Of a DNA stretch of 40,373 bases, positions 1-38,479 are shown piece by piece (position 1 is the first letter of the stretch; every line of letters starts with the position of its first letter). The translations under genes and the position numbers were made by a program. This stretch comes from a virus. The notes beneath the pieces are model-generated. The model was not told the DNA's origin. It ran no database searches and worked only from the letters and a program-made list of their open reading frames with translations. The stretch lies in the IMG/VR virus record IMGVR_UViG_3300042286_000057; one strand, 5' to 3'.

Positions 1-127
1 GTAATCTCGGCAGAACCATACGCCGTCCGTGCGCTCCGCTACTTCGACTGCACGGCCATAAGAATCGTACCCGCTGTAAAGTCGCCTAGCTTTAGCCATA
101 ACATTTCTCCGCATTCCGTGTTGGTAT
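1..127. repeat. Terminal direct repeat, copy 1 (identical to 40247..40373)
   Basis: Nucleotides 1-127 read identically to 40247-40373. This implies a circularly closed or terminally redundant unit of 40246 bp. It carries the 5' end of the minus-strand gene annotated at 40037..40345. Confidence 0.95.
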
Positions 128-133
128 GGTTGA

Positions 134-162
134 ACTATACCTATCGGGGCTGCCACTGTTAA
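134..162 (-). promoter_or_regulatory. sigma70-like promoter of the accessory cassette that wraps across the window ends
   Basis: The minus strand reads TTAACA (162-157), a 17-nt spacer, then TATAGT (139-134). It lies 20-35 nt upstream of the ATGs at 114/99, which equal 40360/40345 in the other repeat copy. Confidence 0.5.
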
Positions 163-191
163 ATACCGATTAGCATCAACAGCCGCCCGCC

Positions 192-389
192 TTATAACTT
201 TTCGTTGCCTGCCTGGCGTACCGGCAACAACCGCCAGCACTCATGCGGGTATCGCGGCGCACTGTCAATGCTGACCGGCTGACTGGCGTCGGCCTCCAGG
301 TAGTCCAGGTACCGCTTGCACCGGCTGCGCTGCGGGCAGAGCCTGGTGCGGTTTGCGCCTGTGCATAAGCGGGCGGGTGGTTGAGTCAT
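192..389 (-). CDS. hypothetical small Cys-containing protein (65 aa, internal ATG of track ORF 192..413)
   Basis: Last open frame of the leftward early operon, starting MTQPPARLCTGANRTRLCPQRSRCKRY. No clear SD. An alternative-frame ORF (265..486) overlaps it. Confidence 0.35.
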   Translation of the reverse strand: MTQPPARLCTGANRTRLCPQRSRCKRYLDYLEADASQPVSIDSAPRYPHECWRLLPVRQAGNEKL

Positions 390-403
390 TGGGCGTGCTG
401 CTG

Positions 404-718
404 TCAGTCCCATACGTCCTTACCTGTTTCTGCGTAGTACCAACTTGAGTCCATTTGAGCGGCGCGCATAAAGCTCTCAACATCACCCATGTTCAGCAGG
501 CCGATGATGTCGTTTTCTGTTGCTGTCTGCTCAATCAGCTCAGGCTCAACGCCAGCCTCGATCGCGGCTGCGAAGCTGTGGTGGCCGTCAAGGATCACCT
601 GATATTCCTCGCCCTCGTACTCAAACGTCGGGCTTACTTGCACTTCAAAATCCTGCGCCTCAATCTTCTTAGCTACGATTTCGTCGTCGATATAGCGCTG
701 GCTGCTGATAAGTTTCAT
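404..718 (-). CDS. ParB/Srx-like nuclease-domain protein (104 aa)
   Basis: VILDGHHSFAAAIEAGV resembles the ParB N-terminal DGHHR motif region. An AGGAAAGGAAA SD-like stretch precedes the ATG at 718. Confidence 0.6.
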   Translation of the reverse strand: MKLISSQRYIDDEIVAKKIEAQDFEVQVSPTFEYEGEEYQVILDGHHSFAAAIEAGVEPELIEQTATENDIIGLLNMGDVESFMRAAQMDSSWYYAETGKDVWD

Positions 719-825
719 TTTCCTTTCCTCGTTTCCGTCTCTCTATGGTTCCCATTATCGCAACCACGGCCCCTACTTGTGAAATATCAATTGGTAGCAA
801 AAAGCGGTTTGCTTATTCCGTTTTG

Positions 826-933
826 TTAGTGAGCCGGCTTTGCTGCCGTTGCTGCCGCCAGTATCTCTTCCTGTATCGCGCAGTTGTACAGCTCTTCGTT
901 GTTGTGATTGGCCTGTTCTGCGTTGAGTGTCAT
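826..933 (-). CDS. hypothetical 35-aa peptide
   Basis: ATG at 933 lies 4 nt after the stop of the upstream gene (938) and has an AAGGA SD. Translates MTLNAEQANHNNEELYNCAIQEEILAAATAAKPAH. Below the ORF-track size cutoff. Confidence 0.3.
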   Translation of the reverse strand: MTLNAEQANHNNEELYNCAIQEEILAAATAAKPAH

Positions 934-937
934 TGTG

Positions 938-1255
938 TTAGTCCTTTTTTGTGTCTAGTAGCTTATTCACCAATGCACTGCCCTCACTGTAAACCTCGCT
1001 GTCCTCAATGCTGAAGCTATCAATTCCGACCAGCATGCAGCCAAGAGCCTTATCCAGCAATTCCACCAAACGATAATGATAATTCGCGGCGGTTACGATG
1101 AATTGGGCGTTGGCTTCCGCTTCTGACTTATCTGGCCATTTCCTGTCGCCCTCCCAACTGTCGGTTTCGTAAGGTTTTACCCATACTCCGCTATGGCTAA
1201 CTACAGCCTCACCATCTACAACGCTCCAAGGTAGCGGCGTATGCCTATCGCTCAT
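938..1255 (-). CDS. hypothetical protein (105 aa; start MSDRHTPLPWSVV)
   Basis: The internal ATG at 1255 overlaps the upstream stop (ATGA), indicating translational coupling. The frame is the same as track ORF 938..1300. Confidence 0.7.
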   Translation of the reverse strand: MSDRHTPLPWSVVDGEAVVSHSGVWVKPYETDSWEGDRKWPDKSEAEANAQFIVTAANYHYRLVELLDKALGCMLVGIDSFSIEDSEVYSEGSALVNKLLDTKKD

Positions 1256-1464
1256 TGTGATTCCCCTCTGGACAACTTCTCGTTTATCCGGCGCATACAC
1301 TCATCCCGATTCTGATGCTGCGACCGGAAGTCTTCGCAAGTCTCCGTCAGGCCGCTTGGGATATGCGTAACCTTTATGCCCTTGGACATTCTTGGAACTT
1401 GCATGCCGTGCCCAGACCTTTGCGGCCACTCCTGGATTACCCAGTCGTTACACTTGCTCATCAT
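1252..1464 (-). CDS. release-factor GGQ-domain-like miniprotein (70 aa) with GMQ in place of GGQ
   Basis: SGHGMQVPRMSKGIKVTHIPSGLTETCEDFRSQHQNR aligns by eye with class-I RF domain 3 ([38 protein letters not shown]). The codons were checked in the DNA: GGC ATG CAA. Confidence 0.75.
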   Translation of the reverse strand: MMSKCNDWVIQEWPQRSGHGMQVPRMSKGIKVTHIPSGLTETCEDFRSQHQNRDECMRRINEKLSRGESQ

Positions 1465-1774
1465 TCGCCTCCTTATTCTTCAGCCTCGCCATAACATCCT
1501 CAAACGATCCGGCGGGCTGGTGGTCGTTGTGGAGTTTGCGGAGACTCTCAGGCCTTGCGTGGTTAATTTTATTCCCGTTTGATGCCGGAAGCGCCTTATC
1601 AATAACAACCCGTTCCTCGCCTGCAAATCCATTTACGCGACCGATTGCGCGCAAAACCTTTACTTTTTGCCCGATGTTTCCTGAGATCCTAGCCTCAACC
1701 ACCACAACCTCATCACCAACCCGCAATGGCCTTCCGTCGATGTCGTGTCCAAGAACTGCGCTCATCTCTTCCAT
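1448..1774 (-). CDS. hypothetical protein (108 aa)
   Basis: Track ORF in the operon. It overlaps its neighbours by 13-17 nt. No recognisable motif. Confidence 0.7.
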   Translation of the reverse strand: MEEMSAVLGHDIDGRPLRVGDEVVVVEARISGNIGQKVKVLRAIGRVNGFAGEERVVIDKALPASNGNKINHARPESLRKLHNDHQPAGSFEDVMARLKNKEANDEQV

Positions 1775-1941
1775 TGCACATACTCCATGAATGCATCAAA
1801 CCCATCGACGTCTACCCCGTTATCGTCTCCCCACTGCTCGGCAGCGTGCTCAAGCATGGCTTGCCGAGCTCCATCCGGCATTTCGTCATTATCAACGGCA
1901 GACATATAGCCAAACACCTGAATTTTCTGATACTCACTCAT
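1762..1941 (-). CDS. hypothetical strongly acidic protein (59 aa)
   Basis: ATG at 1941 overlaps the upstream stop (ATGA) and follows GAGGGGG. Translates MSEYQKIQVFGYMSAVDNDEMPDGARQAMLEHAAEQWGDDNGVDVDGFDAFMEYVQWKR, with 13 D/E against 4 K/R. Below the track cutoff. Confidence 0.6.
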   Translation of the reverse strand: MSEYQKIQVFGYMSAVDNDEMPDGARQAMLEHAAEQWGDDNGVDVDGFDAFMEYVQWKR

Positions 1942-2144
1942 CTCGCCCCCTCAATCTCTTTAAGCAGGGCGCGGGCGCCAGCGCAATCTGCGCCAACGAT
2001 CTTTAGCACCTCAACCAACCTCTCATGGTACTTAGCCGCCACCCGAATACCCGGCGACATCTCCCGGCCTTGTGCGGCTCCGTGAGCGCGGCCTATGGCT
2101 ACCAGGTGGGCGCGGGTTTCTGGGGTGATGTCTACTGTGGGCAT
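1938..2144 (-). CDS. hypothetical protein (68 aa)
   Basis: Track ORF, coupled to both neighbours by overlapping start/stop codons. Confidence 0.65.
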   Translation of the reverse strand: MPTVDITPETRAHLVAIGRAHGAAQGREMSPGIRVAAKYHERLVEVLKIVGADCAGARALLKEIEGAR

Positions 2145-2392
2145 TATTCGACCCTCCAGATACGGACGCCGCCTTCGACATTCCGTGCGACGAACCTGCA
2201 GGGGGCCCCTTTCCTGCGCCGCTTAAACGCAAGCTGCCGGGCCGCCGAAGCCTCTAATCCATCGCTGTGCCCGCCGCGAATGAAAACGCTGTCGCCGGGC
2301 TCCATCTTCGAAAACGGGTACGGCGGGGCCAAACTGCCCGGCGGACGCCGCCCCTCTTTCGGGGGTGGTACGTTCTTCTCGATCTCAGCCAT
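2144..2392 (-). CDS. hypothetical protein (82 aa)
   Basis: First ORF downstream of the 2431..2459 promoter. The YPFSKMEPGDSVFI...GGVRIWRVE pattern is typical of small conserved phage proteins. Confidence 0.7.
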   Translation of the reverse strand: MAEIEKNVPPPKEGRRPPGSLAPPYPFSKMEPGDSVFIRGGHSDGLEASAARQLAFKRRRKGAPCRFVARNVEGGVRIWRVE

Positions 2393-2412
2393 ATCTGCCT
2401 CTATGCCTCTAG

Positions 2413-2753
2413 TTATCCGTTACCCTAAAAACTGTAACCCGTTTTCCGACAGCCGTCAACTTTTCTCAGAGGTAACCGAAAGGGATTTATCTGTTACCTC
2501 CTGCGGGCCGCGCCATTACTGGGTTTGCGCCAGAAAGGTACCGGGTACCAGAAGTTTCAAATCATTACATGTACGGGTAAGTTAAATATGCGGTGTGTAA
2601 AATATTGAGGTTCTCCCGCACGTATAGAATTCACGTACTATCTGTTATCTGGTACCTTTGAATAGAAAATCGCCCGGTTTTCAGGGGGTTAGGTCAGGTA
2701 ACAGATAAATCTATCTGTTACCTTTTCCGCTACCTTTCGGCCTTTCTGTTACC
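2413..2753. repeat. array of six copies of a 12-mer (consensus TTATCTGTTACC), one inverted to form a palindrome
   Basis: Copies: 2413-2424 ttatccgttacc, 2487-2498 ttatctgttacc, 2638-2649 ctatctgttatc, 2697-2708 ggtaacagataa (inverted), 2711-2722 ctatctgttacc, 2742-2753 ctttctgttacc. An AT-rich patch lies at about 2575-2615 and twin GGTACC sites at 2537-2549. Confidence 0.8.
2431..2459 (-). promoter_or_regulatory. sigma70-like promoter for genes 2392 down to 192
   Basis: The minus strand reads TTGACG (2459-2454), a 17-nt spacer, then TACAGT (2436-2431). One 12-mer repeat copy lies between the -10 and the ATG, and another lies upstream of the -35. Confidence 0.5.
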
Positions 2754-5279
2754 TCAGAACGGAACGTAGTCTGCCCCGATGGTTTTATCCAGCTCCTTCC
2801 TGATCCGTTCGTTATCGTCAAGCGGGAGCCCTTTAACCCAAACCCGCCTCGGCTTCCCTTCCCATTTAAGCTGCTTCGGGCAGTGGACCCAGCCCAGCCG
2901 CTGCATCACTTTTGCCAGAGCCCGGCCTTTCGGCATCTCCAATATATCGTCCACGTCAAACTCCGCACCTGGCGGCAGTTGGCTGAGGCAGTCCGTGGCG
3001 ATGGCTTTTTCGGCCACCCCTTTCCCGCCCATCTCGATCCTCTGCGCCACCACGCTCTCGTCGTCGTCCACGTCCGCCGCACGCATGGATTCTTTCTCCG
3101 GCGTCCTGGGGGCGTGGCCGTTCGGGTTAAACGAGTCCGACAGTTTATGGTCCAGTAGCCAACGCCTGAGAGCCCCGGCCTGTTCCAACGCCGCGTGGAC
3201 TTCGGTGAAATAGATATCCATCCGCTGGCCTATCCGGTCCTCCATCTCCTCCGGCGTACTCCATGGCGTAAAGATCACGAACCAGCGCCGGTCCGTGGCC
3301 GACACGGGCAGGGCGTCCGAGTAGTTGGTGAACGCCATGTAGTTCGTCACGTTCAGCGCGTTGTAGCTGTCCTGGCCTTTCTTGTGGATGTCCACCGTGT
3401 TGTTGGTGATTAGGGGCTTCAGGGCGTTCATGGCGTCATATCGGTTGTGGCCGACCAGGCGGACCTCCTCCAGCCCGACGACGCACCGGCCTTCGGCGAA
3501 GCCGTTAAAGTTGCCCATGACCACCGACGGGCCCACGGTCCGCGTGTTAGGCTCACCGATGCAAACGGCGATAAGCTCCAGAAGCAGGGTTTTGCCGTCA
3601 CCCTCGATGCCTTTGATCAATGGCGCGTACCGGATTTTACGGCCGGGGTACTGGACGTTGTGGGCGATGAAGTCCAGCAGCGCCTTGTACACGGCCGGCC
3701 GGTTCCCGGCGATAAACTGTATGTGTCTGTCCATCACCTCCACCGCCCGCTGTCCGTCCGCATCCAGCCAGTCGTCCGCTTCCGGTATGCTGGCGGGGTT
3801 AAAGGTGTTGACGCAATCCCGGCCGCTAACCGTGAACCGCTCCCCAAACTGCGGGCAGTACATGCCCATCTCAACCGTGGGTATCTCCAGATCGTCCAGG
3901 GCATAGCGTAGCGCCGACGGCCGGCGGCCTTCATCGTCCGGTGGTAACTCCCTCTGGTACATGGCGTTAAACCCCTGCGGCGACACCCATTGATCCGTCC
4001 CGTATCGGTATAGCTTGTCGTTGTGCGTGACGTAGTACCAGCGGTCCGCCCATGCAGCCTCCGGCGTATCGACGCGATCCACGCCCCCGCCGGTCCGCTT
4101 GACGGCTTTACGCGCCACGGCAATGGACAGGTGCGAGCCCTCCAGCGCTTTGAAGCGCTCTTGGAACTTCATCGCCAGCCGTTCGCGGTCCACTTCCGCA
4201 AGCTCCGCGTCCCGCCCAACGCCGGCCGCCACGCGCTTCAGTCGTTCCAGATCGTCGGAACCGTCCATCCGGTCCAGCCACTTCTGGATGGGCGCGGCCT
4301 TCTGGATTTCCTGCACTGCGCTCTTTGCCTGCGCCTTCAGATCGACGCCTAGCCAGCCCGCAAGCGCCTTTAGTGCCTCGTCTTCGTCGCCGTTACTATG
4401 CCACTTCGCTACCACCTGAACCGGCGTCATGCCGATTTCTTCGCCGTGGTCGCGGATGCCTTGCGGGTGGATCGACAGGTCCTCTTGCAGGTCCCGGCCC
4501 AGCGCCTCAGACGACACCCGGTAGCCGCCCTGATACTCCTTGGCGTCCTGCCCGAACACATGCGGCACCCAGTCCGCAAACCGGCGCATAGCCTCATACT
4601 GCACCCGCTCCTCCGCCGTCATGGCCTCAACAGCAACGGGCGGGCGGTAGGTCAAAAGGAACAGTTCATCCTCGTCGAACACCTCGGAGCCTTCGGCTAC
4701 TTTCCAGCCCTCCGGCAGCAAGGCCGGCACGCTGTCCAGCCACTGGGCCAGATCAGCGTCCGTCACCTCCGGCAAGTCTTCGGCCGCGCAGTCGAGCAGG
4801 TCGCCGTTCTCCCAGCGGTACGGTTCCCGGAGGTCCGGGTGTATGCCGTAGGCCACAAACTGCTGGCCGGTCATCAGGATTTCTATGGCGTGGTCCCGGC
4901 CGTCCGGAGAGGTCAGTTTCAGTGTTTTCTTTTTACCGCCGCCGGGGCACCGGACCGCCAGCAGCACCCGGCCGGGCTTACCATAGCGGCGGGGTCCGTC
5001 TCCGAACGTCCAGCCGAAGTCAGACGCCACGGTCTCGGTGACGGCTGCATCGTCGATATCAATATCAACGCCGACCACTTCACCCGTGCGGATGCCTACG
5101 TAGTGGCGGGCCTTACCGTTGGCCTTCCAGGCTTCTACCCGGCTCCGATCAATGACCAGGCTGGACCATTTCGGCAGGCGCGGTACTTTCTCCCCCGGCG
5201 CTATGGGCAGGACTTCGTAACCCATCTCCAGCAAGGTCAGGCCGATGTCCTTAATCATGAATCCGTCAGGCTTGCTCAT
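2754..5279 (-). CDS. bifunctional primase-polymerase / SF3 (D5/P4-type) replicative helicase (841 aa)
   Basis: The N-terminus looks like a Prim-Pol domain (GYEVLPIAPGEKVP...GIRTGEVVGVDIDIDD). The C-terminal half has Walker A GIEGDGKT and Walker B VVGLEEV, typical of phage/plasmid primase-helicases. Confidence 0.9.
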   Translation of the reverse strand: MSKPDGFMIKDIGLTLLEMGYEVLPIAPGEKVPRLPKWSSLVIDRSRVEAWKANGKARHYVGIRTGEVVGVDIDIDDAAVTETVASDFGWTFGDGPRRYGKPGRVLLAVRCPGGGKKKTLKLTSPDGRDHAIEILMTGQQFVAYGIHPDLREPYRWENGDLLDCAAEDLPEVTDADLAQWLDSVPALLPEGWKVAEGSEVFDEDELFLLTYRPPVAVEAMTAEERVQYEAMRRFADWVPHVFGQDAKEYQGGYRVSSEALGRDLQEDLSIHPQGIRDHGEEIGMTPVQVVAKWHSNGDEDEALKALAGWLGVDLKAQAKSAVQEIQKAAPIQKWLDRMDGSDDLERLKRVAAGVGRDAELAEVDRERLAMKFQERFKALEGSHLSIAVARKAVKRTGGGVDRVDTPEAAWADRWYYVTHNDKLYRYGTDQWVSPQGFNAMYQRELPPDDEGRRPSALRYALDDLEIPTVEMGMYCPQFGERFTVSGRDCVNTFNPASIPEADDWLDADGQRAVEVMDRHIQFIAGNRPAVYKALLDFIAHNVQYPGRKIRYAPLIKGIEGDGKTLLLELIAVCIGEPNTRTVGPSVVMGNFNGFAEGRCVVGLEEVRLVGHNRYDAMNALKPLITNNTVDIHKKGQDSYNALNVTNYMAFTNYSDALPVSATDRRWFVIFTPWSTPEEMEDRIGQRMDIYFTEVHAALEQAGALRRWLLDHKLSDSFNPNGHAPRTPEKESMRAADVDDDESVVAQRIEMGGKGVAEKAIATDCLSQLPPGAEFDVDDILEMPKGRALAKVMQRLGWVHCPKQLKWEGKPRRVWVKGLPLDDNERIRKELDKTIGADYVPF

Positions 5280-5448
5280 TGCCTATGCGCTCCGCTTTCA
5301 GTTTGCCCTTAGATGCAACCTCTATCTGAAACTGCCGGACCGGGGGCGGGTGATCCCCCCACTGGTAGGTGGCCGATACCCAGATGCCCAGGGCCTCGGC
5401 CAGTTTCTGGCGGGATCCGAAGAAGTCCACCGCTTCTTGTGTGGTCAC
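5266..5448 (-). CDS. Cro/YdaS-like HTH regulator (60 aa, GTG start)
   Basis: FGSRQKLAEALGIWVSATYQWGDHPPPVRQFQIEVASKGKL matches the Cro/YdaS-type pattern. It is the first gene of the leftward operon and has a GGAG SD. Confidence 0.7.
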   Translation of the reverse strand: MTTQEAVDFFGSRQKLAEALGIWVSATYQWGDHPPPVRQFQIEVASKGKLKAERIGNEQA

Positions 5449-5468
5449 GCTAAATTCTCCTCTGATTA

Positions 5469-5512
5469 TTGACAGCTGTTACAGTCTGCTGTAATACTGT
5501 GCCAGCTGTCAA
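5469..5512. promoter_or_regulatory. divergent control region: 10-bp inverted repeat with two TTGACA hexamers
   Basis: TTGACAGCTG (5469-5478) and CAGCTGTCAA (5503-5512) are perfect inverted repeats 24 nt apart. On the plus strand TTGACA, 17 nt, then TAATAC(T) at 5492-5498 precedes the gene at 5534. An inner TACAG/CTGTA palindrome is present, and a CTGTTAC core is shared with the 2413-2753 repeats. Confidence 0.5.
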
Positions 5513-5533
5513 ACGAAAAACCGAGGAAACGAC

Positions 5534-5911
5534 ATGTCCGCACATCAAGAAAGAGTAGAAGACCTGCTGGCCTCCCTGATCCGGGAGCAGCAGCAAACCC
5601 GCGACGCCATCGCATCACTGGCGGAAGCCATCGCTGGGGTACGCGCAGAAGTGACGGAGGCCGCGCCCGCCCAGGCCAAAGAAACCGAAAAGGCCCCAGA
5701 AGCGAAAGCGGAGCCCGAAGCCTCCCCCAGCGACGCCGAACCGGAGGCCCCGGTAGACATCAACCAGCTGCGTGAAGCGTTCGCGGCTAAAAGCCGGGAC
5801 GGCAAAAAGACTGAGCTGAAGGAACTGCTCTCCAGCTACGGCGCTAAAAAGCTGCCCGACCTCAACGAGTCGCAATACGCCGAGGTGCTGAAGAAGGCGA
5901 ACGCGCTATGA
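5534..5911 (+). CDS. hypothetical Ala/Glu/Pro-rich protein (125 aa), first gene of the replication operon
   Basis: Track ORF with a GAGGAAA SD. Its end overlaps the next gene (ATGA). Confidence 0.8.
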   Translation: MSAHQERVEDLLASLIREQQQTRDAIASLAEAIAGVRAEVTEAAPAQAKETEKAPEAKAEPEASPSDAEPEAPVDINQLREAFAAKSRDGKKTELKELLSSYGAKKLPDLNESQYAEVLKKANAL

Positions 5912-7017
5912 TCGCCCACGCCAAACTCGGCGCGTCCAGCGCAGACCGATGGATGAACTGCCCCGGCTCGGTGCAGCTCTCCGAAGGCATGCCGGACAGT
6001 AAAAGCGAACACGCCGCCCTGGGCACCAAGGCGCATGATCTCGCTGAGCTGTGCCTGAAACACAAGCTGGACGCCACCGACCTGCCGGACACCGACGAGT
6101 GGGCGCAGTACCCGCACGACATGCGGGACTATGTGCAGGTGTACCTGGACTACGTGCGGGCCCGTCTGTTTGAGACCGGCGGCCGCCTGCTGGTAGAGCA
6201 GCGGGTGGACTACAGCGAGTGGGTGCCGGGGGGCTTCGGGACATCGGACGCCATCATACTGGCAGACGACCGCATCATCTGCGTGGATCTGAAGTACGGC
6301 ACCGGGGTGAAGGTCTACGCAGAGCGCAACCGGCAGGCCATGCTCTACGCCCTCGGCGCGTACTCCGACTACTGGTACGACCTGCCGGACGCCCCGAAGG
6401 TGGAGAGCGTCATTGTGCAGCCCCGGCTGGACCACATCGACGAGGCTGAGCAAACCCTGGATGAGCTGCTGGCCTTCGCTGACGAGGCCCGCAAGGCGGC
6501 GGAGCTTGCCCTGTCTGATAGCCCGCCCTTGGTGCCAGGGGAGAAGCAGTGCCGCTTCTGCCGAGCTAAGGCGGTATGCCGGGCCCGCGCCGACAAGAAC
6601 CTGAGCATCGCGGTAGAGGAGTTCGGGGAGCCGGTCCCCGCGCCGGACAAACTGGACCTTGACGAGATTGGCGAACTACTGCCGAAACTGGACGACATCG
6701 CCCAGTGGGTGAAAGATGTTAAGGAATACGCTTTACAGCAGGCTGTAAACGGCGGTAAGATAAAAGGCTATAAGGTTGTGGCAGGTCGCAGTGTTAGACG
6801 CTGGACCCCTGACGCAGCCGAACGGCTCGCTGAATACGATGACCTCTTTGAGCGTAAGCTCCTGGGCATCGGGCAGGCAGAGAAAGTTCTCGGCAAAGGC
6901 TCCGATCTGATCAAAGAGCTGACCGTGAAACCGGAGGGCAAACCGGCGTTGGTTCCGGCCTCCGACAAACGCCCTGAAATACAGGGCCCCCAATCCGCCG
7001 CAGATGACTTTGCATGA
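5908..7017 (+). CDS. PD-(D/E)XK Cas4-like exonuclease (DUF2800-type, 369 aa)
   Basis: GASSADRWMNCPGS at the N-terminus, a VDLKYGTG nuclease core, and the C-terminal Cys cluster CRFCRAKAVC. Confidence 0.85.
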   Translation: MIAHAKLGASSADRWMNCPGSVQLSEGMPDSKSEHAALGTKAHDLAELCLKHKLDATDLPDTDEWAQYPHDMRDYVQVYLDYVRARLFETGGRLLVEQRVDYSEWVPGGFGTSDAIILADDRIICVDLKYGTGVKVYAERNRQAMLYALGAYSDYWYDLPDAPKVESVIVQPRLDHIDEAEQTLDELLAFADEARKAAELALSDSPPLVPGEKQCRFCRAKAVCRARADKNLSIAVEEFGEPVPAPDKLDLDEIGELLPKLDDIAQWVKDVKEYALQQAVNGGKIKGYKVVAGRSVRRWTPDAAERLAEYDDLFERKLLGIGQAEKVLGKGSDLIKELTVKPEGKPALVPASDKRPEIQGPQSAADDFA

Positions 7018-7640: not shown

Positions 7641-10484
7641 ATGAAACACCTACACATCGACCTAGAAACGTACAGTGAGGCCGACCTACCGAAGACCGGC
7701 GGCCAGTTCTACGCCCGGCACCCCTCCACCCGTGTCCTCTTGCTGGCTTACAGCTACGGCGACGAGATCCACCTGATTGATCTTGAGAACGGCGGCGCCC
7801 TGCCGGACTCTTTGCTGGAGGACCTGAAAAACCCCAACGTAACCAAGTGGGCCCACAACGCTGCCTTTGAACGCGCCATCCTGTCCAATGTGCTTAACGT
7901 GCCGTGTGAGCCGGAACAGTGGCGCTGCACGATGGTCTGGGCCATGTCCCTGTCCTTGCCCGCCGGGCTAGACAAACTGAGCGAAGCCCTCAAGCTCGGC
8001 ACTGACGCCAAGGACAAAGAGGGCAAGCGCCTGATTCGCAAGTTCTGCCTGCCGGGCGGAGACGTGCAGCAGGATTTGAACGACGACGACTGGCGGCGGT
8101 TTTGCGAGTACTGCCGTCAAGACGTTGCGGCGGAGATGGCGGTGGCCCGGAGGCTAAAGCGCTACGCCCTGCCGGACAGCGAGTGGCAAGCGTGGGCCGT
8201 TGATCAGCGGGTTAATGACAACGGCCTGCCGATTGACATTGAACTGGTCCAGGCCATCCGGCGCGTGGCGGAGACCTATAAAGAGGACACCGCCGCCGAG
8301 GCCGCCAGGATAACCCAGCTGCCGAACCCCAACAGCCGGGACCAGATGCTGTCATGGCTGGCGGAGAGGGGCGTACAGGCGGATGACCTGACAAGCGGCA
8401 CCGTGGACCAACTATTGGCCGGAACACTGCCGGAGCCCGTCAGGAAGGCCCTGGAATGCCGCCAACAGATGAGCAAGGCCAGTCTTGCCAAGTTCGACGC
8501 CCTGGACCGGGCCACCTGTTCGGACGGCAGGCTCCGAGGCGCGTTCCAGTTTGCCGGGGCCGGCCGGACCGGCCGTTTTGCGGGCCGCATCTTCCAGCCG
8601 CAGAACCTGCCACGGCCGACGCTATCGGACGCGGACATAGACGTGGCCCGAAAGGCAATCCGGACCAGTGACGCCGATACCATGGGCATGATGTACGACG
8701 ATCTGAGCGGGGCGCTGTCTTCGCTGATCCGGTCCGTCATCGCGGCCCCGGCCGGCCGCCAGCTGGTAGTGGCGGATTACGCCAGTATTGAATCCATCAT
8801 GGTGGCGTGGTGCGCCGAGTCTGATTACCTGCTGAACCTCTACCACAAGGGGCTTGACCCCTATAAAGACTTCGCCACGAAAATCTACGGCATCGCCTAT
8901 GAGGACGTGACCAAGGAGCAACGCAGCTTCGCAAAACCCGCCGTTTTAGGCTGTTTTGCTAGTGGGACGCAGGTATTGACTAGGACCGGGCCTGTCGATA
9001 TAGTCAATATCTCTGACCAACATGAATTATGGGACGGCGTTGAATGGGTACGAAGCGAAGGGGCGATACCACAGGGGGAAAAACAGGTTGTGGAGAGAGC
9101 GGGGGTTTTTGTGACCCCCGACCACCTCATCCTGACGGACAGCGGGTGGCAGCAAGTAGCCGACCTAACCGACTACGATTTAAACCGGGCGATACAGTTG
9201 GCGCGTGGCACCTTATCGACTACTGCCGAAAGTACTGGCTGTGTCGGTGCGGCGACTGCTCAAAATTTGAGTGGGTCAACGCTACTAACCTCAACCTCGG
9301 AAAAACACGCAGATGCGTCTCGTGCGCTAACCGCATTACAAGCGCGGAACGCAGCGCCGCGACTAAACTCGGCGTTGAACAGCGCCACTATGACCGGCTT
9401 GCAAACCGCGTGTACGCGCAGCGCGCCCGGTGCCAGAATCCAAACAACCCCGGCTATGCGCACTACGGAGCGAGGGGAATACGATTCAACTTCAAAAGTG
9501 TTGAAGAAGCTGTCGCGTACCTTATCACGCTGCAAGGATGGGATAATCCGGATCTTGAAATTGACCGCATCAACAACGACGGGGGTTACGAGCCCGGCAA
9601 CCTGCGATTCATTGACAGACGCGGAAACACCTCCAACACGAGGCAATCGGGCCGGATTGAGTACGAAGGGGGGACTTACACGTACAGCGAGTTCCGCCGG
9701 CGGTTCGCCCCTAAATACCGCGATGCTAGAACTATCGGGCGCAAGGCGGCACAAGGAAAAACAGCCGAGGAAATCATCGCGGATCAATCCGGTTGCCGAG
9801 GCGCCTACTTACGACCTTCTGAACGCAGGCCCGCGTAACCGATACACGATCTTAACCGATGAAGGCCCGTTGATTGTCCATAACTGCGGCTACGGCCTGG
9901 GGGCCACGGGCTTGCAGCGGTACGCGGAGGCATTCGGCATGGAGATGACCGCCAGCGAGGCGAAGAAGCAGGTAGACACGTTCCGGTCTGCCTACTCCGA
10001 CATCCCGGAGTTCTGGGCCAAACTGGAGACGGCCGTCACCAAAGCTATGCAGTCAAAAGGCCGCACGATCCGAGCCGGGCGGTTCACGTTCCAGTTTGAC
10101 GGCCGGTTTCTGCTTCTGGGCCTACCCAGTGGCCGGCACTTGTATTACTACCAGCCGCGCATGGAGACCGGCAACTTCGGCAAGCTGGAGTTGACCTACG
10201 CCGGCAAGGAGCCGAACGTCCGCATTGGCACGCACCCCGGCAAGATTGTGGAGAACGTGGTCCAGGCGGTTGCCCGTGATCTACTGATCGAAGGGCTCAA
10301 GAACACACAGGCCGCCGGCTTTGAGATTGTCGGACACGTTCATGACGAGATCATCTGCCTGGCGGACGCGGACGACACCGAGGCCGAGCAGCGCCTACTG
10401 GACGCCATGACCAAAACGCCCGCATGGTGCAAAGACGCGCCGATCCGGGCAGACGGATACACCGCCCCGTACTACAGGAAATGA
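7641..10484 (+). CDS. family-A DNA polymerase precursor (947 aa) containing a 311-aa intein
   Basis: The N-terminal 3'-5' exonuclease has motif HIDLETYS. Motif B (RSFAKPAVLG / CGYGLG) is split by a Hint-domain insertion. The C-terminus has HVHDEI (motif C). Confidence 0.95.
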   Translation: MKHLHIDLETYSEADLPKTGGQFYARHPSTRVLLLAYSYGDEIHLIDLENGGALPDSLLEDLKNPNVTKWAHNAAFERAILSNVLNVPCEPEQWRCTMVWAMSLSLPAGLDKLSEALKLGTDAKDKEGKRLIRKFCLPGGDVQQDLNDDDWRRFCEYCRQDVAAEMAVARRLKRYALPDSEWQAWAVDQRVNDNGLPIDIELVQAIRRVAETYKEDTAAEAARITQLPNPNSRDQMLSWLAERGVQADDLTSGTVDQLLAGTLPEPVRKALECRQQMSKASLAKFDALDRATCSDGRLRGAFQFAGAGRTGRFAGRIFQPQNLPRPTLSDADIDVARKAIRTSDADTMGMMYDDLSGALSSLIRSVIAAPAGRQLVVADYASIESIMVAWCAESDYLLNLYHKGLDPYKDFATKIYGIAYEDVTKEQRSFAKPAVLGCFASGTQVLTRTGPVDIVNISDQHELWDGVEWVRSEGAIPQGEKQVVERAGVFVTPDHLILTDSGWQQVADLTDYDLNRAIQLARGTLSTTAESTGCVGAATAQNLSGSTLLTSTSEKHADASRALTALQARNAAPRLNSALNSATMTGLQTACTRSAPGARIQTTPAMRTTERGEYDSTSKVLKKLSRTLSRCKDGIIRILKLTASTTTGVTSPATCDSLTDAETPPTRGNRAGLSTKGGLTRTASSAGGSPLNTAMLELSGARRHKEKQPRKSSRINPVAEAPTYDLLNAGPRNRYTILTDEGPLIVHNCGYGLGATGLQRYAEAFGMEMTASEAKKQVDTFRSAYSDIPEFWAKLETAVTKAMQSKGRTIRAGRFTFQFDGRFLLLGLPSGRHLYYYQPRMETGNFGKLELTYAGKEPNVRIGTHPGKIVENVVQAVARDLLIEGLKNTQAAGFEIVGHVHDEIICLADADDTEAEQRLLDAMTKTPAWCKDAPIRADGYTAPYYRK
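9044..9838 (+). CDS. HNH-type homing endonuclease ORF nested in the intein, in the -1 frame relative to the polymerase
   Basis: Frame-2 translation from about 9179 reads GDTVGAWHLIDYCRKYWLCRCGDCSKFEW...YGARGIRFNF...EIDRINNDGGYEPGNLRFIDRRGNTSN. This is a Zn-finger plus HNH-like core, followed by a C-terminal helix region ending at TAA 9836-9838. The true start is unknown: ATG 9044, GTG 9146, or entry by frameshifting. Confidence 0.75.
   Translation: MGTKRRGDTTGGKTGCGESGGFCDPRPPHPDGQRVAASSRPNRLRFKPGDTVGAWHLIDYCRKYWLCRCGDCSKFEWVNATNLNLGKTRRCVSCANRITSAERSAATKLGVEQRHYDRLANRVYAQRARCQNPNNPGYAHYGARGIRFNFKSVEEAVAYLITLQGWDNPDLEIDRINNDGGYEPGNLRFIDRRGNTSNTRQSGRIEYEGGTYTYSEFRRRFAPKYRDARTIGRKAAQGKTAEEIIADQSGCRGAYLRPSERRPA
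9179..9185 (+). promoter_or_regulatory. candidate -1 programmed frameshift site T_TTA_AAC
   Basis: The polymerase-frame codons are GAT TTA AAC (9177-9185), so the heptamer is in X_XXY_YYZ register. A -1 slip enters the HNH frame at CCG (9185), exactly where HNH-family similarity starts. Confidence 0.4.
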
Positions 10485-13187: not shown

Positions 13188-13335
13188 ATTGCACCGTCTC
13201 CTTAAACACCCGCCCCAGCGCCGCCTCAAGCTCTGCTATGCGCTCCTGTTGTTGGGCGGCTTGTTTCGTTATCGCTTGGAGCTGCCGGTTCTTTTCGTAA
13301 AGCTCTGCTCGGAGTTCGCGTTCGGTTTGGGTCAT
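13177..13335 (-). CDS. hypothetical coiled-coil protein (52 aa from ATG 13335)
   Basis: ATG 13335 overlaps the methyltransferase stop (ATGA) and follows GAGGGCAGAG. The frame is that of track ORF 13177..13404. Confidence 0.6.
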   Translation of the reverse strand: MTQTERELRAELYEKNRQLQAITKQAAQQQERIAELEAALGRVFKETVQYAR

Positions 13336-14909
13336 TTCTCTGCCCTCATGATAACAACATCCACCGACGCACCCCGGAACTGATTTTCGTAGACCTTCGA
13401 CCATGTGAGGCTCATCCCAGGGAGCACATCTTTGCCTTTGGCGCTGGCTGGAAGAATCGCCACCAGCACGCCGTCAGGGCGCAGCATGGTTGCCGCGTGC
13501 TCGATGTGTGCTTGCCATCGCCCCTGGCTGTAAGGCGGGTTCATTACGATGCGGTCAAACTTCAGATTCGGTAACCCCTCTGACCATTGCAGAAAGTCTG
13601 CCTGAATGACCTCGTGACCTTTCTCGCGCAACACAGCACAGTGCAGCGGGCTGACCTCCACACAATGCAAGGGCGCGTCTATAAGGTCGGCAATGTTGCC
13701 TGTTCCGGCGCTCGGCTCAAGACAGTTGTGCGCGGTGCGGATCTCCGCCAGCTCCACCGCATCCCGGGCAATGTGCTCAGGCGTCGGGTAGAACTGGTGG
13801 CTTTTCTGGTCAGGGATAACGCCGGTGCACACGATCTCTTTAATGACCGGTTCCGGGTCGTAGTCGAACTGATACCAGCTGTATGCGTTGGTGTTCTGCT
13901 TCACGCCGCCCAACAGCTCTAGCACCCGCTCAACTTCGGCGATTACATGCTTGTCCTTTTCGTGGGATTCGATTCGGACAGCGTTCGGAATCAGCCGGCG
14001 GCTACGCTCTGCGGTGTCATAGGCACGGCCAAGGCGGTGAAGCACGTCCAGCACCGCGAACGGTAAAGGTCTTTCCATCAAGGTAAATTCTTTTACCTTG
14101 CGCTTCGGCTTCTGCCGGAATCGGGATGGAATGGCGGTCGGGTACAGGTGGTGCAGGATCTCGTTCAGGCGCCACGCCATATCCGGATGCACTTCTAGGT
14201 GGGCATTGCTGTTCTTGTAGCACCGAATCCGGAGCGCCCCGCCATCCAGTGGCACCCACTCACCCCGATGGTTCGCTCGGGCGATCTCGACAACCCGGTT
14301 GCTTGCATTCCAGTCCGGCTCGTCGCGCCCCATGAATTTCGCAATCACCTGGCGCAGATCATTCAGGTGCCCGGTCTGGCTGCGGGAATAGCTGCCCCAG
14401 TCGTTAGTTACGCCGGTCAGGATCATGCGTTTGCCGAATCCCTCCGGCTGATTGGTGACGTGCGCCTTGCTCAGGGCTCGGAAAATTCCGTCTACCTTTT
14501 CGGCCAGAAAGTCCATACGCTGGGCCAGAAGGTCCGCCAGGGTGGCGCGAACGGCGCTTTCCTCAAACTCCGGCGCTTTGTGGTTGTGAATCAGATCAAA
14601 CCACTCTTCCCGGCGCTTCGTGGGCATGAAATCCAGAACGTCCGTCAGGCTCAGGGCTTGGTGCCAGTAGCTGGCATCCAGCGCAGCCAGGCCACTTTCC
14701 AGCTTGAAGCTCGGCGTATTTCCGCCCTGGTGGTGTTGCCGCTTGGCGGCATCCTCGAAATACGAAATCACCGACCGGAAGTCATCGCCAGAGACATACT
14801 CTACCACGCGCTCCATGCGCTGGCGCTCTTCCCGATAGCGGCCAATGAGACTATCGACCATGTCCGTGCTGGCTGGGGCGAAGAACTGCGATTCAGCAAG
14901 ATTACTCAC
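13332..14909 (-). CDS. DNA N6-adenine methyltransferase with a large N-terminal DUF4942-like domain (about 525 aa)
   Basis: Motif I is LEPSAGTGNI and motif IV is VMNPPYS, both in the C-terminal third. A GTG at 14909 with a GGAG SD is the probable start, although the track ORF extends to 14945. Confidence 0.9.
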   Translation of the reverse strand: MSNLAESQFFAPASTDMVDSLIGRYREERQRMERVVEYVSGDDFRSVISYFEDAAKRQHHQGGNTPSFKLESGLAALDASYWHQALSLTDVLDFMPTKRREEWFDLIHNHKAPEFEESAVRATLADLLAQRMDFLAEKVDGIFRALSKAHVTNQPEGFGKRMILTGVTNDWGSYSRSQTGHLNDLRQVIAKFMGRDEPDWNASNRVVEIARANHRGEWVPLDGGALRIRCYKNSNAHLEVHPDMAWRLNEILHHLYPTAIPSRFRQKPKRKVKEFTLMERPLPFAVLDVLHRLGRAYDTAERSRRLIPNAVRIESHEKDKHVIAEVERVLELLGGVKQNTNAYSWYQFDYDPEPVIKEIVCTGVIPDQKSHQFYPTPEHIARDAVELAEIRTAHNCLEPSAGTGNIADLIDAPLHCVEVSPLHCAVLREKGHEVIQADFLQWSEGLPNLKFDRIVMNPPYSQGRWQAHIEHAATMLRPDGVLVAILPASAKGKDVLPGMSLTWSKVYENQFRGASVDVVIMRAEK

Positions 14910-15390
14910 CCTCCAACTCCCCAGCCCGCAACGCGGACGCCACAATATCGATCATGTCTTGCTCGCGTGTTTTGTGCCCACGACCGCCGGGCTGCAACGC
15001 CTTCTTGACCAGGTGCTGCAATGCCGGATTTTGCACGCGCCAGGCGTGTAGCACGTCGTACACGTCCACCCAGACGCCGGGCTTGATTTCGCGGTGGTAC
15101 TTACTGTGGACTCCTTCGGGTACGCTTTGGCCCCACTCCTGCGCCGGCGCGGCTTCCTCTTCCTCCGTCATAACCAGCCCCAAGTCTCGGCGGGCTTGGA
15201 GCCATTGGGCTTTGGTGTATTCGACAGAATAGGGGCGAACTCTCCTGATATAGTCAGGCTCCCTTCCGTCGTCGTTAATTCCATTCCAGCCAACCGCCCA
15301 TAAACTGCCCTTTGGCTTTAATGGCCACTTGCTCACATTCTTCGCGAGCCATTTAAGGTCTGGGTGCATATCATTACTCATACCCGCCAC
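14902..15390 (-). CDS. DUF3310-like protein (162 aa)
   Basis: The C-terminal VDVYDVLHAWRVQNPALQHLVKKALQPGGRGHKTREQDMIDIVASALRA resembles the SaV/DUF3310 pattern. Confidence 0.75.
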   Translation of the reverse strand: MAGMSNDMHPDLKWLAKNVSKWPLKPKGSLWAVGWNGINDDGREPDYIRRVRPYSVEYTKAQWLQARRDLGLVMTEEEEAAPAQEWGQSVPEGVHSKYHREIKPGVWVDVYDVLHAWRVQNPALQHLVKKALQPGGRGHKTREQDMIDIVASALRAGELEGE

Positions 15391-38402: not shown

Positions 38403-38479
38403 TGGTGGGCCAAGGCGGCTATGCTCCGCTCCTCCTGCCGATTATGAGTCGGCTGCTCTGCTGATTGAGCTATTGGCCC
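38403..38479 (-). tRNA. tRNA-like gene with a CAU anticodon (Met or Ile2 type), encoded CCA, and non-canonical D and T loops
   Basis: Manual fold: acceptor GGGCCAA/TTGGCCC, U8, D stem GCTC/GAGC, anticodon stem GCCGA/TCGGC with loop CUCAUAA, discriminator A, then CCA. The T stem is only 4 bp plus an A-C mismatch. The T loop is AGCAUAG rather than UUCRANY, and the D loop AAUCAGCA lacks GG. Confidence 0.55.

Follow-up and report, generated by a model that had tools for sequence, protein, structure and literature searches.

The Gly-Gly-Gln (GGQ) sequence of release factors is among the most strictly conserved motifs in biology. A virus record of IMG/VR (IMGVR_UViG_3300042286_000057), analysed here over its full 40,373 nucleotides and referred to as the window, encodes on its minus strand a protein of 69 amino acids, here called mini-RF, that is a pared-down release-factor domain 3 reading His-Gly-Met in place of that motif.

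The mini-RF gene and the phage genome that carries it

The preliminary description had reported a protein of 70 aa at 1252-1464, and a 70-codon reading frame is present there on the minus strand with the peptide exactly as first quoted (Table 1); the codons GGC ATG CAA that it had read lie at 1407-1399, and with the preceding His codon the motif runs CAC GGC ATG CAA (1410-1399). The Shine-Dalgarno sequence TAAGGAGG is spaced 6 nt from the ATG at 1461 and 3 nt from the ATG at 1464, and public gene calls also give a protein of 69 residues, so that the second ATG is the likelier start; residues are numbered on the 69-aa form throughout. The stop codon of the upstream ORF (1448-1450) falls within the mini-RF gene, and the mini-RF TGA (1252-1254) overlaps the ATG of the next ORF (1253-1255) as ATGA. 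Since the gene overlaps both neighbours, translational coupling to them, as initially claimed, holds, and the same is true of the location in an early operon, as the leftward operon is headed by a Cro-like regulator and a primase, followed by small ORFs without known function among which mini-RF is found.

Table 1. Features of the mini-RF locus in the window, and anti-defence genes found near x-G-M genes on other contigs (contig handle given before the positions).
Feature	Positions	Strand	Basis or remark
mini-RF CDS, 69 aa	1252-1461	minus	ORF list; Pfam RF-1; PHROG 20323; public gene calls
mini-RF from alternative start ATG at 1464, 70 aa	1252-1464	minus	
Codons CAC GGC ATG, His18-Gly19-Met20 (69-aa numbering)	1402-1410	minus	Aligned with Gly-Gly-Gln of release factors
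Codons of R46-S-Q-H-Q-N-R52, conserved start of domain-3 helix	1306-1326	minus	RSQHxN[RK] in release factors
Shine-Dalgarno sequence TAAGGAGG	1468-1475	minus	Read from sequence; strong; serves mini-RF
Upstream ORF, 108 aa, no confident family	1448-1774	minus	Stop codon 11-14 nt inside mini-RF gene
Downstream ORF, 105 aa, phrog_1273 (unknown function)	938-1255	minus	ATG overlaps mini-RF TGA
P22 Cro-like regulator	5266-5448	minus	Head of leftward early operon containing mini-RF
Prim-Pol/DUF5906 primase	2754-5279	minus	Early operon with mini-RF
Tad3	L009 3233-3697		Near x-G-M gene
Acb2/Tad1 hairpin	L010 3271-3507		Near x-G-M gene (context L010/L011)
Acb2/Tad1 hairpin	L026 9089-9313		Near x-G-M gene
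AcrVA2-like	L023 648-1595		Near x-G-M gene

The identical 69-aa protein was found on at least 22 contigs from several metagenomes and on two phage backbones, the gene existing in two versions that are one synonymous base apart. The first backbone, that of the window, carries the Cro-like regulator and the Prim-Pol/DUF5906 primase, and the second carries DUF1391, a PriCT_2 primase, YqaJ and AAA_24. The module around mini-RF is a clear mosaic exchange between these backbones. The block comprising a 59-aa ORF, mini-RF and a 104-aa ORF is 98.5-99.5% identical between them (L003, L004, L007 and L008 compared with window positions 1-6000).

The window itself is an almost complete genome of a siphovirus, about 40 kb in length, and has its own genes for DNA polymerase, helicase, methyltransferase, tape-measure protein, portal and terminase. 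A nucleotide search of the region against cultured phages revealed no close relative, the region had no nucleotide match in complete E. coli genomes, and no cultured phage has a protein more than 36% identical to the portal protein. A scan of GTDB genomes returned three distant matches that gave no clue to the host, which is probably a proteobacterium (GC 0.54-0.61). In the 947-aa DNA polymerase (7641-10484, plus strand), polymerase PHROGs match residues 1-438 and 749-947, and the endonuclease-like segment between them (phrog_93, residues 459-762) could represent an intein or the insertion of a homing endonuclease. The 537-aa DNA methyltransferase (13332-14945, minus strand; phrog_6263, E = 2e-191) is encoded between the modules for replication and structure and may have an anti-restriction function. 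A single tRNA-Met (anticodon CAT; 38403-38479, minus strand) shares its strand with the mini-RF operon and is located immediately upstream of the terminase genes; it would lie a few kb downstream of that operon if the genome were circularly permuted. Reassignment of a stop codon in this phage was considered and rejected, as code 11 leaves long ORFs unbroken throughout the window and no tRNA other than the tRNA-Met is encoded.

Relation to release-factor domain 3

The homology to the RF-1 domain that had been proposed at the outset is significant in profile searches. Against Pfam PF00472 mini-RF scores 39.4 bits (gathering cut-off 35; E = 6.4e-10) over profile positions 20-71 of 116, and against PHROG 20323, a phage family with a profile of 73 positions that bears the label 'RF-1 domain peptide chain release factor', residues 7-65 match profile positions 6-63 of 73 with E = 1.3e-11. 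A phmmer search of PDB sequences aligned 52 residues with E. coli RF2 without a gap (E about 7e-9). Judged by these scores, the similarity to the RF-1 domain is far beyond chance. Structure prediction, which the preliminary description had suggested as a check, agrees: an AlphaFold2 model from a 40-sequence alignment (mean pLDDT 81.3) has predicted strands at residues 7-12, 28-33 and 38-42, with a loop between the first two, and a helix at 48-67, and Foldseek placed domain 3 of RF2, RF1 and PrfH on top of the list with probability 1.00 (TMq 0.65-0.79). The best 50 PDB fold matches were all release factors or their homologues, and the best matches in the viral fold library BFVD were phage 'release factor' proteins. 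As modelled, mini-RF is a bare domain 3 core of three strands, a loop and one helix.

Reduction to this core, also claimed initially, is in line with the behaviour of the full-length families. The NCBIfam equivalogs for RF1, RF2, PrfH and ArfB matched only locally and far under their cut-offs, with 35.6 bits for TIGR00020 (cut-off 370), 34.9 bits for NF001859 (cut-off 400), 26.2 bits for PrfH (TIGR03072; cut-off 166.65) and 13.2 bits for ArfB (NF006718; cut-off 100), and the Pfam scan gave no PF03462 match. Of the families that had been suggested for comparison, only the RF-1 domain was therefore recovered above its cut-off, and ArfB and PrfH were not. A basic tail is absent, the protein ending 5 residues past the helix.

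With domain 3 of RF1 and RF2, mini-RF shares 33-38% identity over about 52 residues, ungapped across the motif, as well as the beta-beta-beta-helix fold, the THxPxG and RSQHxN[RK] sequences and, with RF2, the length of the loop. In contrast to these factors of about 350 aa, its 69 residues include none of domains 1, 2 and 4 and hence no means of reading stop codons; GGQ has become HGM, the Gly-rich lead-in SGAGGQ has given way to a Pro-rich one with W-P, and the HVN(K/R)T segment is replaced, in keeping with the earlier observation on HVN, which the alignment with RF1 and RF2 upholds. ArfB (YaeJ), ICT1 and C12orf65 likewise consist of a catalytic RF domain without codon-recognition domains, but these factors keep GGQ, and ArfB and ICT1 have an alpha-i helix insertion and a basic C-terminal tail needed both for ribosome binding and for activity (PMC3950681), neither of which is present in mini-RF. 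PrfH, a truncated RF paralogue found in conflict and repair contexts and a fold match of mini-RF (9mor_A), differs in that it keeps GGQ, has about 200 aa including a recognition domain, and is paired with RtcB; no RtcB is found among the neighbours of mini-RF.

Closer in size are the PHROG 20323 proteins of phiPsa374-like Pseudomonas phages, T4-like Acinetobacter phages and cluster C mycobacteriophages, phage proteins of about 70 aa that mini-RF matches end to end. No protein of a cultured phage is more than 41% identical to it, however, the PHROG 20323 proteins are annotated as release factors, and the Acinetobacter versions, unlike mini-RF, have a fully degenerate loop. Loss of the Gln from an RF domain 3 has a parallel in the MRPS35-type GGQ-domain protein, where the domain was kept for a non-catalytic ribosomal role (PMC6514570), although that protein belongs to the eukaryotic mitochondrial ribosome, has flanking helical domains, is not borne by mobile elements and shows no conserved Met. 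Taken on its sequence features, mini-RF belongs to the RF-1 domain superfamily and to PHROG 20323 and is not a class I release factor, an ArfB or a PrfH, as the features that define those groups (GGQ, recognition domains, tail, pairing with RtcB) are missing. The survey of release-factor evolution by Burroughs and Aravind does not mention phage versions (PMC6514570). Our literature search, which left most subscription-journal papers outside its reach so that a prior description is possible, found no published account of a phage RF subfamily with Gln replaced by Met.

The register of the motif decides which residue has been changed. The preliminary description had paired S-G-H-G-M-Q with S-G-A-G-G-Q and concluded that the second glycine of GGQ had become Met, a pairing that requires a one-residue deletion past the Q. 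Three independent alignments (phmmer to RF2; an HMM alignment of the 150 best database matches including canonical factors; and MAFFT on 40 mini and ArfB-like proteins) instead place H18-G19-M20 on G-G-Q with no gap across the motif, and G19 is the sole invariant column in the MAFFT alignment of 40 sequences. Where mini proteins with GGQ show GGQHVG..., their x-G-M counterparts show GGMHVG... or GGMQVG... at an equal distance from the THxPxG strand. In the nearest relatives of mini-RF the Met is invariant, and it is followed by S, C, S or G. These alignments, together with the equal spacing in GGQ and GGM relatives, indicate that Gln was replaced by Met and the first Gly by His, and that the second Gly is kept as G19. 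The absence of an intact GGQ therefore stands, but the GMQ register and the loss of the second glycine were alignment artefacts.

The x-G-M subfamily and its genomic settings

A word-indexed search had found P0002 (58% identity, K-G-M-G) as the sole relative of mini-RF; an exhaustive HMMER search of 1.84 billion cluster representatives returned 1,898 matches at E<=1e-3. Among the best 150 of these 1,898, a set that is biased toward the query profile and in which all figures are cluster counts and not prevalences, 95 representatives lack Gln at the motif position; the tip residue in those 95 is Met in 71, Phe in 12, Leu in 3, Ile in 2 and Trp in 2, it is nearly always preceded by Gly, and the residue that opens the motif varies (G 22, T 10, H 9, K 9, S 5, R 3), with GGM being kept by 22 of the 95, about a quarter. 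From the exhaustive search, about 90 distinct 50%-identity clusters of proteins of 60-140 aa carry W-P-x(5-6)-x-G-M. In an alignment of 74 sequences, conservation extends from the N-terminal half (W12 aromatic in 92%, P13 85%, G19 96%, M20 85%, G28 95%) through the turn (H33 96%, P35 91%, G37 96%, C42 86%) to the start of the helix (R46 97%, Q48 84%, H49 85%, N51 97%, R52 82%), so the family as a whole keeps two elements of true release factors, the strand-turn THxPxG and the helix start RSQHxN[RK].

We delimit the x-G-M subfamily by W/Y-P, x-G-[M/F/L], THxP[T/S]G and RSQHxN[R/K] in proteins that are typically 60-140 aa long, some being fused to unrelated extensions, and the mini-RF of the window carries all of these marks (W12-P13, H18-G19-M20, T32-H33-I-P35-S-G37 and R46-S-Q-H-Q-N-R52). 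In a nearest-neighbour test on 207 pooled domain sequences, the nearest neighbours of mini-RF were all x-G-M proteins, and for 84 of 88 x-G-M sequences the nearest was another x-G-M sequence; the 25 mini GGQ proteins grouped with one another or with long factors, apart from x-G-M, and 12 of the 20 sequences with a fully degenerate loop nested beside x-G-M. One of these, P0005, has G-H-T-R in place of the G-M tip, yet is a member of the clade nearest to the window's protein, which carries S-G-H-G-M. The closest members of that clade (P0003, P0004 and P0005; 223-226 aa) bear extensions of about 160 aa without a Pfam match, N-terminal in P0003 and P0004 and C-terminal in P0005. On this evidence the x-G-M mini-RFs constitute a large, coherent subfamily on phages and other mobile elements, and the annotation 'peptide chain release factor 1' that these genes receive in genomes is misleading.

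The preliminary description had allowed that the altered motif might be an isolated mutation or a sequencing error, with relatives uniformly carrying GGQ. Neither is the case, as the nearest clade reads S-G-H-G-M and the motif is common to the roughly 90 clusters. The wider supposition that mini-RF is a decaying or erroneous copy, be it by sequencing error, by a private mutation of GGQ or as a pseudogene fragment of prfA or prfB, has its short length and missing GGQ in its favour and nothing more, and it is refuted by the family-wide motif and by the identity of the protein on at least 22 contigs and two backbones with one synonymous difference. The strong Shine-Dalgarno sequence, the coupling to both neighbours and the confidently predicted fold also speak against it, and its probability is negligible.

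The x-G-M lineage has so far been seen only on phages, a prophage and other contigs resembling mobile elements, where the genes lie in early or accessory phage regions, at integrase-proximal prophage ends and in what are apparently other mobile elements. An all-against-all BLAST of the neighbours at seven independent x-G-M loci revealed no conserved partner gene, only mini-RF itself recurring, and the gene moves as a module on its own, within early or accessory regions. An IMG/VR search with a five-sequence alignment of the clade gave 11 loci, which are uninformative on x-G-M context because most carry GGQ-bearing or otherwise different mini-RFs, and tblastn of P0153 against plasmids mainly returned canonical prfB on large replicons. 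Four of the seven independent contexts have an anti-defence Pfam family no more than 5 kb from the x-G-M gene (Table 1), an association by neighbourhood that is suggestive only; PADLOC gave no match for mini-RF, its neighbours or its relatives.

RF-1-domain ORFs of mycobacteria and mycobacteriophages sit in tRNA arrays with Pth and tmRNA genes (PMC5966550). Adjacency to tRNA genes was rejected as a general trait of the x-G-M genes, as it is absent in nine x-G-M loci and tRNA genes flank a homologue only in T4-like Acinetobacter phages. In one of these, Acinetobacter phage Minot (MW388001.1; L002 828-1707), a 78-aa RF-1 domain protein with the fully degenerate loop K-G-A-S-N-W lies in a tRNA cluster, directly behind a tRNA-Met; a tRNA with a CUA anticodon (amber-reading, annotated tRNA-Pyl) precedes it by about 570 bp. 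In Pseudomonas phage Kremar (OM982620.1 1610-2086; L001 1483-1959), a 158-aa protein is annotated 'peptide chain release factor 1'. The Kremar protein joins a GGM mini-RF (W-P...G-G-M-Q-V-G) to a fragment of the C-terminal domain of ribosomal L7/L12 (PF00542, residues 90-118, 28.3 bits with a cut-off of 25.9) followed by a Cys-rich tail, a fusion which links the x-G-M family to the translation apparatus.

These settings bear on the possibility that the domain-3 scaffold acts off the ribosome, as a decoy or binder such as a non-methylatable pseudo-substrate of PrmC, or as a binder of small molecules or RNA in an anti-defence island. The Met stands exactly at the position of the Gln that PrmC targets, the gene stands alone as a module of accessory regions, close to anti-defence genes of the sponge type, and Acb4, a small alpha-beta-beta-beta-alpha nucleotide sponge of phages, resembles release factors in fold (PMC11722364). 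However, the best-kept residues, THxPxG and RSQHxNR, are those shared with ribosome-bound release factors, the best PDB fold matches are confined to release factors and homologues, the Kremar fusion points to the ribosome, and a profile comparison with Acb4 (SPO1 gp1.3) gave an hhalign probability of 0.1%. We consider an action away from the ribosome improbable. Identity with the Acb4 sponge itself was rejected on the hhalign result; in the Pfam scan PF13876 (Phage_gp49_66) matched gp1.3 and had no match in mini-RF.

Proposed action at the peptidyl-transferase centre

Both glycines of GGQ adopt torsion angles available only to Gly, and any mutation of either abolishes release, while the Gln side chain serves for packing, and methylation at N5 gives it further van der Waals contacts with U2506, A2451 and A2452 (PMC5799190). 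The group through which hydrolysis is catalysed is the backbone amide of the residue in the Gln position (PMC6742477). Without its tail, the isolated GGQ domain of ArfB/YaeJ neither binds the ribosome nor hydrolyses (PMC3950681).

The residues kept best are the ones that ribosome-bound factors also have, and mini-RF is therefore most simply read as an occupant of the peptidyl-transferase centre (PTC) and A site that modulates the host factors for termination and rescue or competes with them, a reading to which we assign a probability of roughly 0.4. The protein would dock in the 50S A site in the manner of RF domain 3, with its loop in the PTC, and the Met side chain would take over the hydrophobic packing role of N5-methyl-Gln against U2506, A2451 and A2452. 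By occupying or competing for the PTC/A site it would alter the action of host termination or ribosome-rescue factors during infection, most plausibly in a conflict between phage and host over translation. As the ArfB GGQ domain alone is inactive and non-binding, the 69-aa protein may need a recruiter, and none is conserved nearby.

Mini-RF is probably not a conventional peptidyl-tRNA hydrolase, since it has no codon-reading domain and no ArfB-type tail, carries His at the first Gly, and has sisters with degenerate loops. The preliminary description had suggested an A-site/PTC-binding mimic rather than a hydrolase, and on sequence grounds this is plausible and weakly favoured, given that the first Gly is variable in the family and that the sister P0005 lacks the motif. 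The conserved Met at the tip could fit catalysis as easily as binding.

The alternative, that mini-RF is an active, codon-independent peptidyl-tRNA hydrolase, would make it a minimal rescue factor of the ArfB/ICT1 kind in which Met replaces Gln without catalytic loss, freeing ribosomes that have stalled through the cutting of mRNA or tRNA under host defence or phage takeover. Met retains the backbone amide that is the catalytic group (PMC6742477) and could offer methylation-independent packing where the Gln side chain only packs (PMC5799190), so that GGM members could in principle be active; the second Gly is 96% conserved and the tip is Met in 85% of the 74-sequence alignment. GGM occurs in 22 of the 95 non-Gln representatives among the best 150 of 1,898, so some members may be active hydrolases, and the RF-1 ORFs in tRNA arrays beside Pth and tmRNA (PMC5966550), like that among the tRNA genes of Minot, suit a rescue function. 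Against this, mini-RF has His at the first Gly, where any mutation abolishes canonical release (PMC5799190), and about three quarters of the family, again among the best 150 of 1,898, have a residue other than Gly in first place. Further, it lacks the C-terminal tail without which ArfB is inactive and non-binding (PMC3950681) as well as any codon-reading domain, the close relative P0005 is without any G-M, and no tRNA adjoins the gene in nine x-G-M loci. We regard hydrolase activity of mini-RF as unlikely, though it deserves to be kept in mind.

Extended from mini-RF to the whole subfamily, occupation of the PTC/A site would make the x-G-M mini-RFs a widespread class of mobile-element proteins that target the PTC, with Met as a methylation-independent surrogate for N5-methyl-Gln, deployed to override or exploit host termination and rescue. 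Countering defences that stall ribosomes by cleaving mRNA or tRNA, and blocking host rescue or abortive pathways, would be examples of such use. This generalization is tentative, and we hold it to be rather doubtful as it stands.

The anomaly in the motif is real and family-wide, and the function put forward for it is a proposal. A diverse RF-domain lineage in which Gln has changed to Met is a natural experiment on the role of the Gln side chain, and either outcome is directly testable with a protein of 69 residues. Should the x-G-M proteins prove to be active hydrolases, no smaller release enzyme would be known, and the Gln side chain would turn out to be dispensable in vivo; if they bind the ribosome, they would represent a new type of viral translation effector and a ready-made minimal probe of the peptidyl-transferase centre.
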